Made by a program: the position numbers and the translations under genes
Part shown: piece after piece, positions 25,374 to 32,000 of the stretch
How the letters are laid out: every line of letters begins with the position of its first letter
Position numbering within the stretch: position 1 is the first letter of the stretch
Assembly: GCA_964648855.1 (NCBI GenBank)
Contig: CAZYLT010000001.1
Coordinates: 60,001 to 92,000, forward strand
DNA: 32,000 nucleotides
Source of the DNA: an uncultured archaeon
GTDB taxonomy: Archaea; Asgardarchaeota; Thorarchaeia; Thorarchaeales; Thorarchaeaceae
Reading direction: 5' to 3'
Notes under the pieces: model-generated
Database searches by the model: none
What the model saw: only the letters and a program-made list of their open reading frames with translations
Told to the model about the DNA's origin: nothing

Positions 25374-25877
25374 TCACTGCTTCGTAATCCGGGTCTTGTC
25401 GAAGCGGCTGATTTTCCGTTCCAGTGCCTTTACATACGGTTCCAGATGGCTTGCTGCACCCTCAAGAATCTCTGAGGGGCACTCTGATAGCTTTCTAGCC
25501 ATGGCGGTAATCTCTACCTGAGAAAGGTATGATGCAATTGGGCATTGGGACAAAAAGACCTCACCTGAGCCCGTCTGAAAGACCGGAAAGGCTCTGCATC
25601 TCAATGGACGCACCTCATATATCTCGCACTCTCCGTCAGTAAGATACGGACACGCCATATCATCGCCCCACTCAGTGATGAACACATCTTCAGATACTGA
25701 GATGAAGTGATTAGGATAGCCCATCTCCACAATGGCAGAAACCTCGTTCCCTGTCGCCACAGCACCGCCAAATTTGCAGCAGTGTGAGCCACATGACTTG
25801 CAGATGTCTAGCTCGTCATTTGAGGAGGTATCTACAGCTCCATAATCATCCTGTTCCTCGTTGACCATTACCATCAA
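25374..25877 (-). CDS. YkgJ family cysteine-cluster (CxxCxxCC) protein
   Basis: CKSCGSHCC, CPYL and CEIYEVRPLRCRAFP. Exact start uncertain. Confidence 0.88.
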   Translation of the reverse strand: MMVMVNEEQDDYGAVDTSSNDELDICKSCGSHCCKFGGAVATGNEVSAIVEMGYPNHFISVSEDVFITEWGDDMACPYLTDGECEIYEVRPLRCRAFPVFQTGSGEVFLSQCPIASYLSQVEITAMARKLSECPSEILEGAASHLEPYVKALERKISRFDKTRITKQ

Positions 25878-26012: not shown

Positions 26013-26384
26013 CTAGTATCCCCACTCTTGTCCGAGGCGTTGTCGATACCAACGTCTTCCTTTCTTTGTGAGAGAATATGTGCCACCTATCTCGTTCAGA
26101 ATATTCATCTGGACCATATTCTGAATAACGCTGTATAGCTGAGAGTCTGATGCCCCAGTAGCATTCTTCAGAGATGCAAAGTCCATCTTCCCGTTTCGCT
26201 TGATTGTCTGAGCAATCTCAAACTTACCAACGGAACGACCATCATCGCGTACTATTAAGTGACCACAGTTCGTGCAAAGTAAATCCCCCTTGCTTTCGTC
26301 TCGGGCGACTTCGTTGCTACCGCAAATCGGACAGGTTCTCTTTGAGAATCTCAGTGAACTACGATTTGTCATGATTGCGACCAC
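26013..26384 (-). CDS. TFIIB-type Zn-ribbon fused to winged-helix domain
   Basis: CPICGSNEVARDESKGDLLCTNCGHLI is a TFB-type ribbon. It is followed by a wHTH (MDFASLKNATGAS...YSLTKKG). The start may be ATG 26372. Confidence 0.8.
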   Translation of the reverse strand: MVAIMTNRSSLRFSKRTCPICGSNEVARDESKGDLLCTNCGHLIVRDDGRSVGKFEIAQTIKRNGKMDFASLKNATGASDSQLYSVIQNMVQMNILNEIGGTYSLTKKGRRWYRQRLGQEWGY

Positions 26385-26438: not shown

Positions 26439-26945
26439 CTATTCCGTTTCGTTGCTTAGGCTCCTGAAGAATTGATCATAGTCGATTTCGAAGGCGACCT
26501 TTTGTCCGGGGCGTACTCGGCCACCTTTTCCATCTAGTTCAACATAGCCCATATCAGCAAGTTCTTTCAAATCAGCTTTGACGCTTCTTTGGCTCTTCTT
26601 TCGAAACTTGGTTACTCGCTCTAATGATATCCACTCTCCCTCTTGATACGTGAGTGTGATAACAACCAAAAGCGTTGCAGCGAGCCTGTCCGGAAGGTGA
26701 CTGTCTTGTTCTGCTCCCTGAACTGCTTCATGAGTTTCCATGTAGAACGTATGTGTAAGGGGGTTATGGCGAATGACAAATCCAAAAGGCTGTAGAAGTT
26801 CATGCAGTTTTGCAAGGCGATTGAAGAGAATATGACGACCGTAGACTTCTGGTAAAGCCAACGCATCCAGTAAATCTTCAACAGACGCGCCAACAGTAGT
26901 CCCAGACTGTGTCAAACGGTTCACAAGAATGGCAAATTCGTTCAT
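26439..26945 (-). CDS. KITE family tandem winged-helix protein (Nse1/Nse3-MAGE/ScpB-like)
   Basis: Two WH-like halves (LHELLQPFGFVIR; ATLLVVITLTYQEGEWISLE...LKELADMGYVE...RPGQKVAFEID). ATG 26945 overlaps the upstream stop (ATGA). Position in the SMC operon supports the call. Confidence 0.7.
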   Translation of the reverse strand: MNEFAILVNRLTQSGTTVGASVEDLLDALALPEVYGRHILFNRLAKLHELLQPFGFVIRHNPLTHTFYMETHEAVQGAEQDSHLPDRLAATLLVVITLTYQEGEWISLERVTKFRKKSQRSVKADLKELADMGYVELDGKGGRVRPGQKVAFEIDYDQFFRSLSNETE

Positions 26946-27574
26946 TCTTTCCATATCTCCCCAGTTTCATGGTCATAACTCAGTTCACCGCGAGAAACAA
27001 GAATTACTACGTAGAGAAATCGTTTGAGGAATACTTCAATTTCATCAGCAGAAATCAAATCGCGGATAAGAAATCGCTTATTGGCGGGAATATTGGACAA
27101 GAAACCATTCATCGCATCAATAAAGACAGCATCCTCCGTCTGGAATGTGAAATCATCAGGGATTCCTCTCATTTTCGGAGGCTCTTCTTCGCCAGGCTCT
27201 TCTGACATGGACTGAATTAGACTCAAAATTCGTTCTAGAGCGCGATTCAGAGTGGTGTAGGTCATCGAACCAAATCTGATTGGATGCCGATAAGAAATGA
27301 GCTTGGCCAATTGCATGGGTGTCAATTCTCGCACTCGTGACACATAGATGTCAGGAGCAGAAAGAATGCGGGCTAATTCCTGCACTCGACTAATCTTGGC
27401 TTCCAAGATATCATTTAACAGAGAGTCTAAGTCAACTTTTACATCCAGGTCTGTTGCCAGGTTTCTCAACTCAATATACGAGTCCCACAATTGGTATTCA
27501 AGAGGATCCGCACCGGATTCTCTAATCTCTCGTGCAACAGTGGCAATCTTCTCAGCGAGCATCGTTGCAGACAA
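26942..27574 (-). CDS. Kleisin (ScpA/Nse4-like) subunit
   Basis: Helical N-terminus (DPLEYQL), Pro/Glu linker and C-terminal WH (RFLYVVILVSRGELSY). Lies directly behind smc, with SD GAGGTG before a TTG start. Confidence 0.72.
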   Translation of the reverse strand: MSATMLAEKIATVAREIRESGADPLEYQLWDSYIELRNLATDLDVKVDLDSLLNDILEAKISRVQELARILSAPDIYVSRVRELTPMQLAKLISYRHPIRFGSMTYTTLNRALERILSLIQSMSEEPGEEEPPKMRGIPDDFTFQTEDAVFIDAMNGFLSNIPANKRFLIRDLISADEIEVFLKRFLYVVILVSRGELSYDHETGEIWKE

Positions 27575-27584
27575 TTCTCACACC

Positions 27585-30500
27585 TCATTGTCCTGAGAAA
27601 CTGGGGCTTTCAATTATCACGGATGGCTCAACGCCACCTGGTGATACAACACCAAGTCGCTTGTCAGCATTCTTCAGCAGATGCGTACTCTTTGCAGGTG
27701 TGAAAATTATGAACTGACTGTTTCTGGATGAGTCATATAATAACCGACTAACCATCTCGGTGTTCGTTGCATCCAAGAATGTATCAATCTCGTCCAGAGA
27801 ATAGACTGGAGCTGGATTGAATCGCTGCAATGCTAGTATCAGACCAATGGCTACAAGGGAGCGCTCTCCTCCAGACCCTGCACTGAGTTCCTCGAACTCC
27901 TCTCCTCTGAATTTGCATTTGAAATCAACACCATAGACCTGGTTACGAAGCGATAAATCAAATCTAACTTCGCCCGAAAAATTAACGCTATTGAGTATCT
28001 CGTTAACATTTTCCTCCACACTCTGAAGGGTTTCATTCATTCCGTTGTGGTACTCTTCCCTGATTTTGTTGATCGTATCCTCCGCCGCGCTTACTTCACC
28101 CTCTAGTTCTGCAACCTTTTTTGTTAGATTACTTAGTCTGTCCTTCAACTTATTCTCAGTGATAGCTATAGTTTCTGATACATCTTGATAATCATCTAGA
28201 AGATGCCTAACTCTGATGAGTTCATTGCGAACAGTTTCCAGACCCCTGACTTCAGCAGGCTGTGTTTGTCCTTCAATCTCATCCTTGACCCGGTTTCTCT
28301 CACTCGACATGGCATCGACCTGCTTCTTGGATTGAATGACCTCCAAGCGACTATTGCGTATCTGAAGATTCATCTCTAGTAGTGCTTCGCGATTCTCCGA
28401 GATTTGTGAATCAAGCTCTTTCTGGTCCTTCTGAAGTGCTTTTCTTTCTGTTTCAAGCTCGGTGATTTTCTGTTTCAAGTCGTCAATGAAACCTAGAATC
28501 TCCGTACCCTCATTTTCAAAACTCTTCAGCTCATCTCGAACTTCCGCCAGTCGCTCAGAGTACATCTCAATATTCTCATTCACAGAGTGAAGTTCTTGAC
28601 GTCTGACTTCTTGATTCTTCTCAGAAGACACGAGGCGATTATCCAGATCCTTCAATTGCTTCTGGAGCCTTCTCTGTTTCATCCGGAGCGCTGATTGCTG
28701 TCCAAGAAGCCTACTCCTCTCAGGGGGTTGCGAATTGTCTAGTTCCCTCAGTTTCATCTCAGCACTATCAAGCTCTTGTTGCAGACCCTCCAATTTTGAC
28801 TCAAGACTAGCAACTTCTGATTGCTGCTCAGGAATGCCATCAAGGAGCTTCTTTCTTCTTTCCCAAATCCCACTCCATCTTGATACTTGGTTCATTAATT
28901 CTAAGACTCTCTCTCTTTCTGCAGCAGTTTCTTCTATCTTTTCCATAATGGCTGTGAGCTGCTTCCTGGCAATTATTAGCTCATTTCTCGTTTTCTTGAG
29001 CTCTTTCTGCAAGGGTGCCAGAGAGATAATACCAGTAGGCTCTTTTCTAGGGTGGCTGATTGTTCTTTCTTCATTCTTAGCGATTACTTGACCATCCAGT
29101 GTAACAATGTTGACTAAGACCTTGTTGGATAGTCTATAGGCGGACAGAGAATTCTTTGTCAATACATAATCCCCGATTGCCTTTGCTACTATCTCCTTTT
29201 CCATCCCTTCTAGTCCAGTTACATCCCAAAGCCAGCCAAGAGCTCCCGGGTACTCAGAAATATCAACATGTTGTGGGCTCTCGCCATCATGAGCTAATAC
29301 AATCGGAGAAGGTGCATCCAAGGAGTCTCTCAGTTTTTGAAGTAAGTCAAAATCTGCCGTATTGCTGGCAATAAAGGCTAAAGAAAGATTAGAATCCAAT
29401 ACAGCCTCAAGTGCGTCCCCATGATTCTCATCGACAGAAAGCTCTGAAAGCAAAGGTCCAATGACATTCTCCAGTTGACGTTCGTCTATTGCTTCTCGCA
29501 ACTGGTTGACAGAATCTGGAATGCGTGCGGAGCGCTCAGCCAATTGATTCTCAAGGGAGTCTATCTTCTTCTGCAGCTCGGAAACCTTCGATGAACGTTG
29601 AAACCGAGTTTCATTTAGCTTGGAAAACCGGCTTTCTATCTGTGCTTTTTTCGCCTCCAGATCTTCTTCGTCAACTCCATCTACAGTGTCCCAAAGCTCC
29701 CCCCACTTGTTCTCTATAGATTGGAGTTCTGCCTCATCAACCTGTAGTTTTTCTCGAAGGCTGCGCATAAGCAGGTCAGTGCTTCGTACCTCAGCCTGCA
29801 ATGCCCGGTAGTCGCCGTGAACTTCTGCTCTTTTGGAATTCCATTCTGCAAATTCATCCAACTTATCATCGAGCTCTTCGCGTTCTTGGTCAACCTCTTC
29901 CATTTCAGCACTAATGGCCTTGTGCTCTTCCATGTATCCCTCTCTAGATTTGCTGATTCGTTGCAAGTCCTGGGATAGACTCTCCTTCTTGCTCTTCTCC
30001 ATTGCAAGTTTTTCTTCCAAATCACGAATTTCCTGAACTAAGCGTCTATTAGAGTCCTCTAGTTTGCTCAGACGGCGCTCTTCTTCCTCTATTCGTGCAG
30101 TGGTTTTTCCAATCTCCAACTGGTTTTTCTGGAGTGACTGGTTCACTAACTCCAATCTGTCTTGCAGGTCTGAAATGAGAGATTCAACAGTTGAGTATTC
30201 TTCTAGAACCGACCCTAGTCCCTCTTCTTTCTCTTCTATCTCTAGTCGAATTTCATCTATTCTAGTATCCAAGTCCTTCAAGAGAGCCCATTTGTGCTCT
30301 AGCTCAAGCTCTTTCTCTTCTTTCTGTAACCGTCGTTTCTTCTCTAACCTTTCAATATCATGTCCTAAGAACTCTAGTTCCTTTTCAACGACTTGTGCCT
30401 CGCTCTTGGCAGATCCCAGATTTTCACTACTCTGAGATACTCTTGATTCTTCAAGACTTATACGGTTTCGCAGTTCGTCAAGACCGGTTCCTTCCTCTAC

Positions 30501-30977
30501 CAGCTTTCGAACCTCTACTGGATCCATATTACGAAGAGCATTAATTCGTTCTTGAGGCATGAACACAAGAGGATTATCTGGGTCAAAACCGAGCGTTTCC
30601 ACCAATTGATGCATCTCGGATGCCTTCACTCTCCTACCATCAATGTATGCTCGAGGAATGCCATCACGGCTGATTTTTCTTTCAAATCTACGTGATTGCC
30701 CATTGACCTTGGCTACGAGTTCTACCGTACCAGAAGAGGCACCATGCCGCACAAAATCACTCCATTTCGAATATCTCCGTTCGCGTTGATTAGAGCCCAA
30801 TGCAAATTTGATGGCATGGAAAATCGACGTTTTTCCGGAGCCATTCGGACCGACCACTACTGTAAGACCTTTGTCAAGCTCTACGGTACCCTCGTAGAAT
30901 GACAAGAAATTCTTCAGCCGTACTGACTCAATATGCACATCAGTTTGATTCAACTCGATCGTAACCTCATCTTCCAA
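27585..30977 (-). CDS. smc: SMC family ATPase, Smc5/6-related
   Basis: LKNFLSF, Walker A GPNGSGKTS, Q-loop FMPQER, long coiled coils around a hinge (VIGPL...VTLDG), signature GSGGERS, Walker B/D-loop LDEIDTFLDATN and QFIIFTP. The start may be a few codons downstream. Confidence 0.93.
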   Translation of the reverse strand: MEDEVTIELNQTDVHIESVRLKNFLSFYEGTVELDKGLTVVVGPNGSGKTSIFHAIKFALGSNQRERRYSKWSDFVRHGASSGTVELVAKVNGQSRRFERKISRDGIPRAYIDGRRVKASEMHQLVETLGFDPDNPLVFMPQERINALRNMDPVEVRKLVEEGTGLDELRNRISLEESRVSQSSENLGSAKSEAQVVEKELEFLGHDIERLEKKRRLQKEEKELELEHKWALLKDLDTRIDEIRLEIEEKEEGLGSVLEEYSTVESLISDLQDRLELVNQSLQKNQLEIGKTTARIEEEERRLSKLEDSNRRLVQEIRDLEEKLAMEKSKKESLSQDLQRISKSREGYMEEHKAISAEMEEVDQEREELDDKLDEFAEWNSKRAEVHGDYRALQAEVRSTDLLMRSLREKLQVDEAELQSIENKWGELWDTVDGVDEEDLEAKKAQIESRFSKLNETRFQRSSKVSELQKKIDSLENQLAERSARIPDSVNQLREAIDERQLENVIGPLLSELSVDENHGDALEAVLDSNLSLAFIASNTADFDLLQKLRDSLDAPSPIVLAHDGESPQHVDISEYPGALGWLWDVTGLEGMEKEIVAKAIGDYVLTKNSLSAYRLSNKVLVNIVTLDGQVIAKNEERTISHPRKEPTGIISLAPLQKELKKTRNELIIARKQLTAIMEKIEETAAERERVLELMNQVSRWSGIWERRKKLLDGIPEQQSEVASLESKLEGLQQELDSAEMKLRELDNSQPPERSRLLGQQSALRMKQRRLQKQLKDLDNRLVSSEKNQEVRRQELHSVNENIEMYSERLAEVRDELKSFENEGTEILGFIDDLKQKITELETERKALQKDQKELDSQISENREALLEMNLQIRNSRLEVIQSKKQVDAMSSERNRVKDEIEGQTQPAEVRGLETVRNELIRVRHLLDDYQDVSETIAITENKLKDRLSNLTKKVAELEGEVSAAEDTINKIREEYHNGMNETLQSVEENVNEILNSVNFSGEVRFDLSLRNQVYGVDFKCKFRGEEFEELSAGSGGERSLVAIGLILALQRFNPAPVYSLDEIDTFLDATNTEMVSRLLYDSSRNSQFIIFTPAKSTHLLKNADKRLGVVSPGGVEPSVIIESPSFSGQ

Positions 30978-32000
30978 GTAGTCTATCTAAACGATCTTTA
31001 CTTCGCTTTGCTCGTAATAATCTCGTCAGTTTCTCATCAGTAGAGCCAGTCAAAAGAAAGGGGTATTGACTTAGAAACTCACGGTCCTCTGGAGTTAAAG
31101 GAAGGTTGGAGTTCAGAGTTTCTATTACCTGTTGTGTCCGATGAAAATTGTCGCCCACCGCCATTAGGTATAGCTGGTCCAGGAACTCATCAGGATATTC
31201 TTCTGATAAGCGCTCATAAGGGGGATGAAATTCACCTTCAGCTTTCTGAGCAATGTCATCAATCACCTGTTTCCTACCAAGTGGAATGAGTCCGGCCTCC
31301 TCAATCATCTTCTCAAGCTCACCTTTTGTATAATCGCTCTTCTCATCGAGAGGATTTCTAACGAGAAAAGATGCTAGGTGAGTAATGTCTGAGAAAGCCC
31401 AGCCTTCAGTGACTTGAGCTAAAAGCGCAGGGTCAGCTGAAGAACCAGCCAAGACCTTTTCCAAGACTCGAACCCTATCCTCCAGGGTCGGTGATTGGAA
31501 TACATAGGTTTGCTCAAATAGAATTAGCGCATCTCTATCGATGGCCTTTGGATTACTGGTCTGACATATAACCAGTATTTCATCATCGTTCCATGAGCAG
31601 TTCTTCATCTCCAGTGAGAGAACAGCGGCCTGATTCGTATTGCTTTCCGCCAGAAGTTCTAGGCGTTCGATATACAACATTGCTGGCGAGTTCCGCTTTG
31701 CGAATTCGAAACCAGTTCGGATCATTTCAGGCAAACGTTCAGAAGACTCCAACATGTCTTCAAATCTGAATCTTAGGAGCCTGAGAGGAATTTCAGTAGA
31801 TATATGGTGAACAAATGACATGAAGTCAGTTCCCGGAGGGCCGATGAGTAGAGTCTTTCCACTGAATTCGAGCCCAAGTTTCTGAAGTTCGGACTGGTGT
31901 TCTTTGGCCCCCTCTAGTTCCTTCTTTAGCTTCCTCGCGTCCTCTATCACTGACTGTTGCGATATCTCCCTAGGTGGGAGCTCCTCTGGTTCTATAAGGT
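30967..32000 (-). CDS. AAA+ ATPase-like protein with degenerate Walker motifs (5'-partial)
   Basis: LLIGPPGTDF, FEFAKRNSPAMLYIERLE, TSNPKAID, PTLEDRVRVL and TEGWAFSDI follow the Cdc48/Vps4/PAN-type AAA scaffold. The frame stays open to the window end (LIEPEELPPREISQQS). Confidence 0.8.
   Translation of the reverse strand, partial: LIEPEELPPREISQQSVIEDARKLKKELEGAKEHQSELQKLGLEFSGKTLLIGPPGTDFMSFVHHISTEIPLRLLRFRFEDMLESSERLPEMIRTGFEFAKRNSPAMLYIERLELLAESNTNQAAVLSLEMKNCSWNDDEILVICQTSNPKAIDRDALILFEQTYVFQSPTLEDRVRVLEKVLAGSSADPALLAQVTEGWAFSDITHLASFLVRNPLDEKSDYTKGELEKMIEEAGLIPLGRKQVIDDIAQKAEGEFHPPYERLSEEYPDEFLDQLYLMAVGDNFHRTQQVIETLNSNLPLTPEDREFLSQYPFLLTGSTDEKLTRLLRAKRSKDRLDRLLGR

Follow-up and report, generated by a model that had tools for sequence, protein, structure and literature searches.

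The DNA analysed here is a 32,000-nucleotide stretch (hereafter the window) of contig CAZYLT010000001.1 from an uncultured thorarchaeon (GCA_964648855.1, positions 60,001 to 92,000), and its last part carries, on the minus strand, an operon for an AAA-fold protein, an SMC protein, a small kleisin and a KITE protein. We conclude that this operon probably represents, in Thorarchaeota, a second SMC complex that occurs Asgard-wide, most likely of the published "SMC5/6-related" lineage, with a putative AAA accessory subunit or adaptor. Our own evidence is the gene order, the folds, the state of the motifs, the way the genes are distributed and the signs of purifying selection. The SMC-kleisin-KITE core is already published as an archaeal "SMC5/6-related" SMC-kleisin-kite operon (Yoshinaga & Inagaki 2021, PMC8665677; van Hooff et al. 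preprint, 10.1101/2024.01.07.573240), and the conserved pseudo-AAA gene is the new element. The genes of the operon, and a zinc-ribbon gene that follows it, are these:

30967..32000 and past the window end, minus strand: AAA-like gene (full gene L009:4968-6134:-, 388 amino acids, 134 nucleotides of it outside the window)
27585..30977, minus strand: SMC paralog, 1130 amino acids (SMC_N, ATPase motifs)
26942..27574, minus strand: small kleisin, 210 amino acids, with N-terminal helices and a C-terminal winged helix (fold, profiles)
26439..26954, minus strand: KITE, 171 amino acids, predicted to hold two tandem winged-helix domains (AlphaFold2 model, fold matches)
26013..26384, minus strand: TFIIB-type zinc ribbon and winged-helix protein, 123 amino acids (Pfam Zn_Ribbon_TF, E 1e-8)

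The SMC-kleisin-KITE core

A sequence-only reading of the window had described four closely packed genes forming a complete SMC, kleisin and KITE operon with an AAA-fold gene in front, and we confirmed four minus-strand open reading frames (ORFs) that overlap or lie 10 nucleotides apart. As read from the DNA, the AAA stop codon TGA (30969-30967) falls inside the first SMC codons, with an 11-nucleotide overlap if the SMC starts at the TTG at 30977; an alternative SMC start is the TTG at codon 9, which has GAGGT just 5' of it. The gap between the SMC stop and the kleisin start is 10 nucleotides, and the kleisin and KITE ORFs overlap by 13 nucleotides or, if the Met conserved in orthologs is taken as the start, by an ATGA. 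The order AAA-SMC-kleisin-KITE also occurs in about 40 Thorarchaeota loci and in six more Asgard families, and therefore the arrangement is not due to chance. The related loci all come from Thorarchaeota metagenome-assembled genomes; identity is 88% for one of them and 42-58% for about 40 others. Compared with an ortholog whose AAA protein is 85% identical, the ratios of nonsynonymous to synonymous substitution rates (dN/dS) are 0.13 (AAA), 0.07 (SMC), 0.10 (kleisin), 0.08 (KITE) and 0.04 (zinc ribbon).

The window SMC matches SMC_N over residues 16-1112 (E 4e-41) and reaches 318.8 bits on TIGR02169, under the curated cut-off of 729.4, while the canonical SMC elsewhere in the same genome reaches 883.9 bits; the window SMC is therefore the second, divergent SMC of this genome. 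A separate canonical smc-scpAB, for which the sequence-only reading had suggested looking, is indeed present on another contig, where smc is followed by ScpA (PF02616) and ScpB (PF04079, E 9.5e-33), and the true SMCs of the genome number two only. The ATPase motifs of the window SMC are intact (Walker A GPNGSGKT, Q-loop PQ, signature SGGERS, Walker B LDEID, and the D-loop), and the motifs VFMPQERI, SGGERS, DEIDTFLDATN and QFIIFTP quoted earlier are all found in it. SMC_hinge gives 18 bits on residues 503-616, under the cut-off of 22.5; most Thorarchaeota SMC orthologs have a precomputed PF06470 match, and Gly and Pro residues of the hinge region are invariant in the family. A homology search with the window SMC returned Thorarchaeota orthologs only among the 120 matches listed. 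Every member of the Asgard paralog family has a Pro at the H-loop position, within residues 1088-1094 of the window SMC (FTP, VTP, FLP or LVP), where the canonical SMCs of archaea carry Leu or Ser-Leu. This Pro may be comparable with the TP of Smc5/6.

We identify the 210-amino-acid protein as a kleisin that, in the C-terminal domain at least, is a homolog of ScpA. Its AlphaFold2 model has the C-terminal winged helix as a block with a predicted local distance difference test score (pLDDT) of 79-85, and the N-terminal helices are poorly modelled with low confidence. Among 48,161 representative chains, searched independently of Foldseek, the top fold match was the ScpA C-terminal winged helix bound to the Smc head (4i99_C; Z 8.2, root-mean-square deviation 2.2, 61 residues), which was the sole kleisin match with Z of at least 8, Scc1-C and another ScpA-C scoring lower. 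The profile of 18 diverse kleisin orthologs matched the same chain (E 0.0016), and a 38-sequence profile detected the genome's own ScpA (E 1e-5).

The 171-amino-acid protein is a KITE by fold, as judged from an AlphaFold2 model (pLDDT 76) in which two tandem winged helices are predicted, and it may belong to either the ScpB or the Nse1/3 type. Foldseek ranked ScpB first (E 8.5e-6), with MAGE-A3 (E 1.7e-4), MAGE-G1/Nse1 (E 8e-4), Nse1-Nse3-Nse4, JetB and MukE behind. The ScpB family PF04079 was found in none of 18 KITE orthologs, and profiles of Thorarchaeota sequences only, one of the kleisin and one of the KITE, gave nothing meaningful against the PDB. The kleisin and KITE folds that the two small genes had been supposed to encode were thus recovered in both, as the C-terminal winged helix of the kleisin and the tandem winged helices of the KITE.

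The AAA-fold partner and the Asgard distribution

The AAA gene matches Pfam PF00004 with 30.9 bits (cut-off 21.2), and the profile of its family finds Cdc48/p97 in the PDB (E 5e-30). In all 31 aligned Thorarchaeota orthologs Walker A reads GPPGTDF and Walker B reads LYIERLE, with the acidic pair gone, so the AAA-fold gene in front of the SMC appears to be catalytically dead. The P-loop is lost in six of the seven Asgard families, and only family f19 (families are numbered as in our survey) retains GTGKT, with IDNFD as Walker B. The f19 AAA protein also has a long coiled-coil-like N-terminal extension and belongs to a short operon (L097:5694-10701, L098:3270-8286) whose SMC, of 835 amino acids, has all ATPase motifs intact. 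The dN/dS of 0.13 indicates that the AAA gene is under purifying selection and is not decaying.

At the loci of the six other families, the ORF directly 5' of the SMC paralog matches the Thorarchaeota AAA profile (E 1e-14 to 1e-60), and a kleisin-sized ORF and then a KITE follow the SMC wherever the contig extends that far. In the seven families the AAA and SMC genes overlap or are separated by at most 35 nucleotides, one f9 locus having about 300 nucleotides to the first start codon, and the AAA sequences of different families share 16-21% identity. Over 44 orthologs the AAA core is highly variable, being shortened in f7 and f8 and enlarged in f9, and most of the near-invariant positions lie in a C-terminal helical domain of about 85 amino acids (..QLY.., ..L..L....F.L.., ..L..AK..), which is retained even where the core is reduced. 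An ESM Atlas lookup with this C-terminal domain gave nothing at a score of at least 0.9 and no recognisable relative. Like the classical-clade AAA ATPases (Cdc48/p97, PAN, FtsH, Vps4), the protein has an AAA alpha/beta and lid fold that is recognised by Pfam and by profile; unlike them, it has a single AAA module, Walker A Lys/Thr and Walker B Asp/Glu replaced in six of seven families, and a family-specific C-terminal domain.

The sequence-only reading had proposed a homodimeric precursor of Smc5/6-Nse4-Nse1/3 with an unreported AAA partner. The latter part stands: full-text searches gave no paper linking an AAA gene to an archaeal SMC, and "AAA" occurs 0 times in the preprint 10.1101/2024.01.07.573240. 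The precursor idea itself had already been published and is not new.

The SMC paralog has a wide Asgard distribution. A search of 1.84 billion representatives gave, below the Thorarchaeota orthologs, a graded series of SMCs descending from 658 to about 200 bits, with named members from Jord-, Baldr-, Hod-, Odin-, Hel- and Sigynarchaeota and from Lokiarchaeum ossiferum. When 117 SMCs were placed in a FastTree, 42 paralogs formed one group (local support 100) apart from 75 canonical-type SMCs, which included the genome's own. Across 201 sampled Asgard genomes, the paralog was present in f1 (Thorarchaeota), f2, f7, f8, f9 and f24 and, as the 835-amino-acid short form, in f19; the other families gave canonical-level matches only, or none. 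Tightly spaced AAA, SMC, kleisin and KITE genes were found in that order in all seven of these families. The paralog occurs in 39 of the 43 sampled genomes of the Thorarchaeota family, single-copy and in conserved synteny, and its identity follows taxonomy, falling from about 50% inside the family to 29% at the level of the order and 23-28% at that of the phylum. Several f9 genomes have a third SMC-like ORF of about 1485-1493 amino acids besides the canonical SMC and the paralog (G040:C27:98983-100125, G147:C2:364004-365140, G132:C32:72432-73727).

By analogy with Smc-ScpAB and Smc5/6, the SMC would form a homodimer, and the small kleisin would bridge the ATPase heads, with its N-terminal helices on one neck and its C-terminal winged helix on the other cap, and would carry a dimer of the tandem winged-helix KITE. 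The same analogy suggests that the ring would entrap or extrude DNA for chromosome maintenance or repair, beside the canonical Smc-ScpAB of the cell. The co-translated AAA-fold protein, which in Thorarchaeota is predicted to be unable to bind or hydrolyse ATP, would be a non-enzymatic accessory subunit or adaptor of the complex.

Relation to SMC5/6 and alternative explanations

In two published phylogenies, the SMC, kleisin and kite of a second operon in TACK and Asgard archaea are reported to group with SMC5/6, Nse4 and Nse1/3 (PMC8665677; 10.1101/2024.01.07.573240). Because the genome has only two true SMCs, the window SMC is, by elimination, likely the member of this lineage. Its putative relation to SMC5/6 draws on these trees and on indirect proxies computed here. 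One proxy is a comparison, on PDB targets, of a profile of 25 diverse Asgard paralogs with a profile of 25 canonical SMCs. The paralog profile gave 191 bits on yeast Smc6 (canonical profile <131), 165-187 bits on Smc5 (canonical 136-174), 156 bits on a second Smc6 entry (canonical 132) and 240-285 bits on Smc1-4 (canonical 550-650). The paralog profile thus appears shifted towards Smc5/6 relative to the canonical one, with an absolute gain on Smc5/6 and most of the Smc1-4 signal lost. Another proxy is the ESM Atlas, a protein language model resource, in which the look-alikes nearest to the kleisin were Bathyarchaeota clusters with Nse4_C (score 0.92, 197 shared features), followed by a eukaryotic Nse4 cluster (0.83) and then by ScpA clusters (0.81 and 0.80); we treat this likeness as a lead rather than a test.

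A number of results weigh against an SMC5/6 affinity and point instead to an Asgard-specific divergent duplicate of the condensin-type Smc-ScpAB, in which the Smc5/6-like motifs would be convergent or long-branch effects. The window SMC scores best against Pyrococcus Smc (130 bits), then Smc3, Smc1 and Smc2 (79-88 bits), with Smc5/6 last (58-62 bits). The sequence-only reading had called the head Smc5/6-type rather than condensin-type, and this is not borne out, since the C-terminal head segment with the quoted motifs favours Pyrococcus Smc (74 bits) and Smc1-4 (46-57 bits) over Smc5/6 (about 30 bits), so that the absolute similarity of the head is higher to canonical archaeal Smc and Smc1-4 than to Smc5/6. 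A 36-amino-acid H-loop query, chosen to bring out the TP likeness to Smc5/6, aligned with Pyrococcus Smc only (E 1.5). Among the nearest nameable matches there were no TACK relatives, the nearest non-Asgard ones being canonical-type SMCs of DPANN, Euryarchaeota and Thermoplasmatota. The small subunits tend the same way: the significant sequence matches of the kleisin are to ScpA and not to Nse4, including the profile hit on the genome's own ScpA; Pfam gave no match on the kleisin, no kleisin family in its 18 orthologs and neither Nse4_C nor Nse4-Nse3_bdg in any of the 18 at E<=1; the KITE matches that span both domains are ScpB only (Z 10.5 over 145 residues and Z 9.8 over 142); and the MAGE Pfam family was found in one of 18 KITE orthologs, weakly (E 0.067). 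Set against a condensin-type duplicate are the gain of the paralog profile on Smc5/6 and its loss of more than half on Smc1-4, the Nse4_C look-alikes ranking ahead of ScpA in the ESM Atlas, a KITE without any ScpB Pfam signal where the genome's own ScpB gives E 1e-32, and the two published phylogenies. On balance we consider such a duplicate rather unlikely, and we prefer membership of the SMC5/6-related lineage.

Two further alternatives concern the function of the complex and the standing of the AAA gene. An SMC-based anti-plasmid or anti-virus defence system (Wadjet- or Lamassu-like), rather than one for chromosome maintenance, would fit the restriction of episomal DNA by eukaryotic Smc5/6, as described in PMC10586767. 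The best specific library matches of the AAA protein are to the anti-phage ATPase IetA, at a low score (35 bits, cut-off 510), and two of the 18 KITE orthologs match DUF4194, the Wadjet JetB family (best E 0.0018). PADLOC, however, gave nothing for the kleisin, the MoxR ATPase and the von Willebrand factor A (vWA) protein encoded beyond the AAA gene; it gave two generic winged-helix rows for the KITE (E 0.002-0.006), generic ABC-head matches for the SMC with JetC at 33.8 bits only, weak IetA matches for the AAA protein, and no Jet match for either the kleisin or the KITE. In none of the families examined did the operon contain or adjoin a gene for a nuclease or another effector, and the absence of a JetD-like nuclease from the window, pointed out earlier, extends to its neighbourhood. 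The single-copy synteny and the identity that follows taxonomy, in 39 of 43 family genomes, indicate vertical, housekeeping-like inheritance and not a mobile defence island. A Wadjet- or Lamassu-like role is thus unlikely, the defence explanation as a whole highly so, and the Wadjet-like anti-plasmid surveillance that had been suggested for the operon found no support. The AAA-like gene, for its part, might be a mere conserved neighbour or a decaying relic outside the SMC complex. What we infer about its role comes from gene order and conservation, which counts against the accessory subunit that we propose, and in f7 and f8 it has lost much of its AAA domain. Its reading frame is intact under the purifying selection noted above, seven families share its position immediately 5' of the SMC paralog even though sequence identity is as low as 16-21%, and its C-terminal domain is kept where the core is reduced. 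The Thorarchaeota genomes without the AAA gene are largely those without the SMC paralog, although adjacency means that single deletions may explain this. We regard a bystander gene as very unlikely and retain the accessory subunit or adaptor.

Compared with known systems, the operon resembles the published archaeal SMC5/6-related operons in having a second SMC beside the canonical Smc, an operon of its own, a small kleisin, a non-ScpB-type kite, an Asgard host and a presumed homodimer, and it differs from them in the AAA-fold gene and in a MoxR-vWA gene pair, which are unmentioned in those papers (PMC8665677; 10.1101/2024.01.07.573240). With eukaryotic Smc5/6-Nse4-Nse1/Nse3 it shares an SMC, a short kleisin and a tandem winged-helix KITE, with MAGE, Nse3 and Nse1 among the KITE fold matches, as well as the profile shift and the Nse4_C clusters already described. 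Unlike eukaryotic Smc5/6, it has single SMC and KITE genes where the eukaryotic complex has pairs, the KITE is without a RING, Nse2 and Nse5/6 are missing, nothing in Smc5/6 corresponds to the AAA-fold partner, and the similarity to Smc5/6 is weaker than that to Smc1-4. The subunit logic and gene order are those of the prokaryotic Smc-ScpA-ScpB, as are the kleisin C-terminal winged helix (like ScpA in sequence and fold) and the KITE (like ScpB in fold over both domains); the operon departs from that system in the TIGR02169 score (319 against a cut-off of 729 bits), in small subunits without ScpA or ScpB Pfam matches, and in the presence of a true Smc-ScpAB elsewhere in the genome. The origin of the multiple specialised SMC complexes of eukaryotes and of their regulators is an open question for which Asgard archaea are the nearest prokaryotic reference. 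The family is also present in the cultured Lokiarchaeum ossiferum, and the complex is open to reconstitution.

Neighbouring genes

When the genes upstream of the window were inspected, as had been advised, the AAA gene was completed and a gene pair was found beyond it, past the window end and divergent from the operon (head-to-head). One gene codes for a MoxR-type ATPase (AAA_5 and AAA_lid_2, intact GGHGGGKT) and the second for a protein of 564 amino acids in which a conserved HExxH in the N-terminal part is combined with a vWA domain at the C-terminal end; the metal ion-dependent adhesion site (MIDAS) of this domain reads DSSGS. MoxR-vWA remodelling pairs are exemplified by CbbQ-CbbO, NorQ-NorD and RavA-ViaA. 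The present pair is like these in having an AAA_5 and AAA_lid_2 ATPase with an intact P-loop beside a vWA protein with a DxSxS MIDAS, and unlike them in the conserved N-terminal HExxH of the vWA partner and in being tied to SMC genes in six Asgard families. We found no paper describing a MoxR-HExxH-vWA pair tied to SMC genes.

The position of the pair is kept in Thorarchaeota and f2, and in f7 and f8 the genes are co-directional and form a tight six-gene operon (MoxR-vWA-AAA-SMC-kleisin-KITE), so that the pair adjoins the paralog operon in four families. In f9 and f24 it is instead tail-to-tail with the canonical smc-scpB. At these f9 and f24 loci the canonical smc is directly followed by an ScpB-like gene, with no scpA between them (L101:4848-12543, L104:4286-12771, L102:4043-11981).

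Other observations count against a part for the pair in the complex. A MoxR ortholog was not found in about seven f9 genomes that hold the paralog, and homologs of the pair occur in f17 and f20 with no SMC nearby. Family f19 yielded no MoxR ortholog, either in the one genome that was given a dedicated search or in the six that the phylum sample contains. We had considered a link of the pair specific to the SMC paralog, and this idea is weakened by the adjacency to canonical smc in f9 and f24 and by the SMC-less homologs of f17 and f20. The more distant MoxR and vWA homologs of f17 and f20 have 36-40% and 27-32% identity (L105:6254-11122, L106:2577-7248, L107:3352-8003), and each of these pairs is preceded by a co-directional ORF of 440-480 amino acids with no assigned family.

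Because the link is not exclusive to the paralog (f9, f24, f17, f20), we offer a functional tie of MoxR-vWA to SMC rings as a hypothesis: speculatively, the MoxR ATPase and the HExxH-vWA(MIDAS) protein may remodel the complex. A bolder version would have the dead AAA protein as a fourth ring subunit which, with MoxR and HExxH-vWA, makes up a machine for loading, releasing or proteolytically opening SMC-kleisin rings, and hence a prokaryotic functional analogue of the eukaryotic loaders, unloaders or separase; we hold this whole reading to be doubtful. Binding of the AAA protein and the MoxR/zincin-vWA pair to the ring, if it occurs, would make them the first accessory factors dedicated to an SMC complex in archaea, and would provide a concrete hypothesis for the regulation of SMC rings before loaders, unloaders and separase.

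On the other side of the operon, the zinc-ribbon gene lies 3' of the KITE gene in 27 Thorarchaeota loci (60-97% identity), was seen only in families f1 and f2, and stays behind the KITE gene even in loci where other genes part KITE from kleisin. Such loci belong to one Thorarchaeota subclade, which has an insert of 1.7-4 kilobases between kleisin and KITE (L013:10042-11785, L016:10042-13396, L053:10042-14003) carrying an opposite-strand gene of about 446 amino acids and sometimes further ORFs, the KITE remaining paired with the zinc-ribbon/winged-helix gene. Still further 3' in the window are two genes that are not conserved with the operon:

25374-25877, minus strand: CxxCxxCC zinc/iron-chelating-domain protein, found elsewhere only in the closest relative, L011
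22336-24906, plus strand: 856-amino-acid protein with Big_7 and DUF3047 domains

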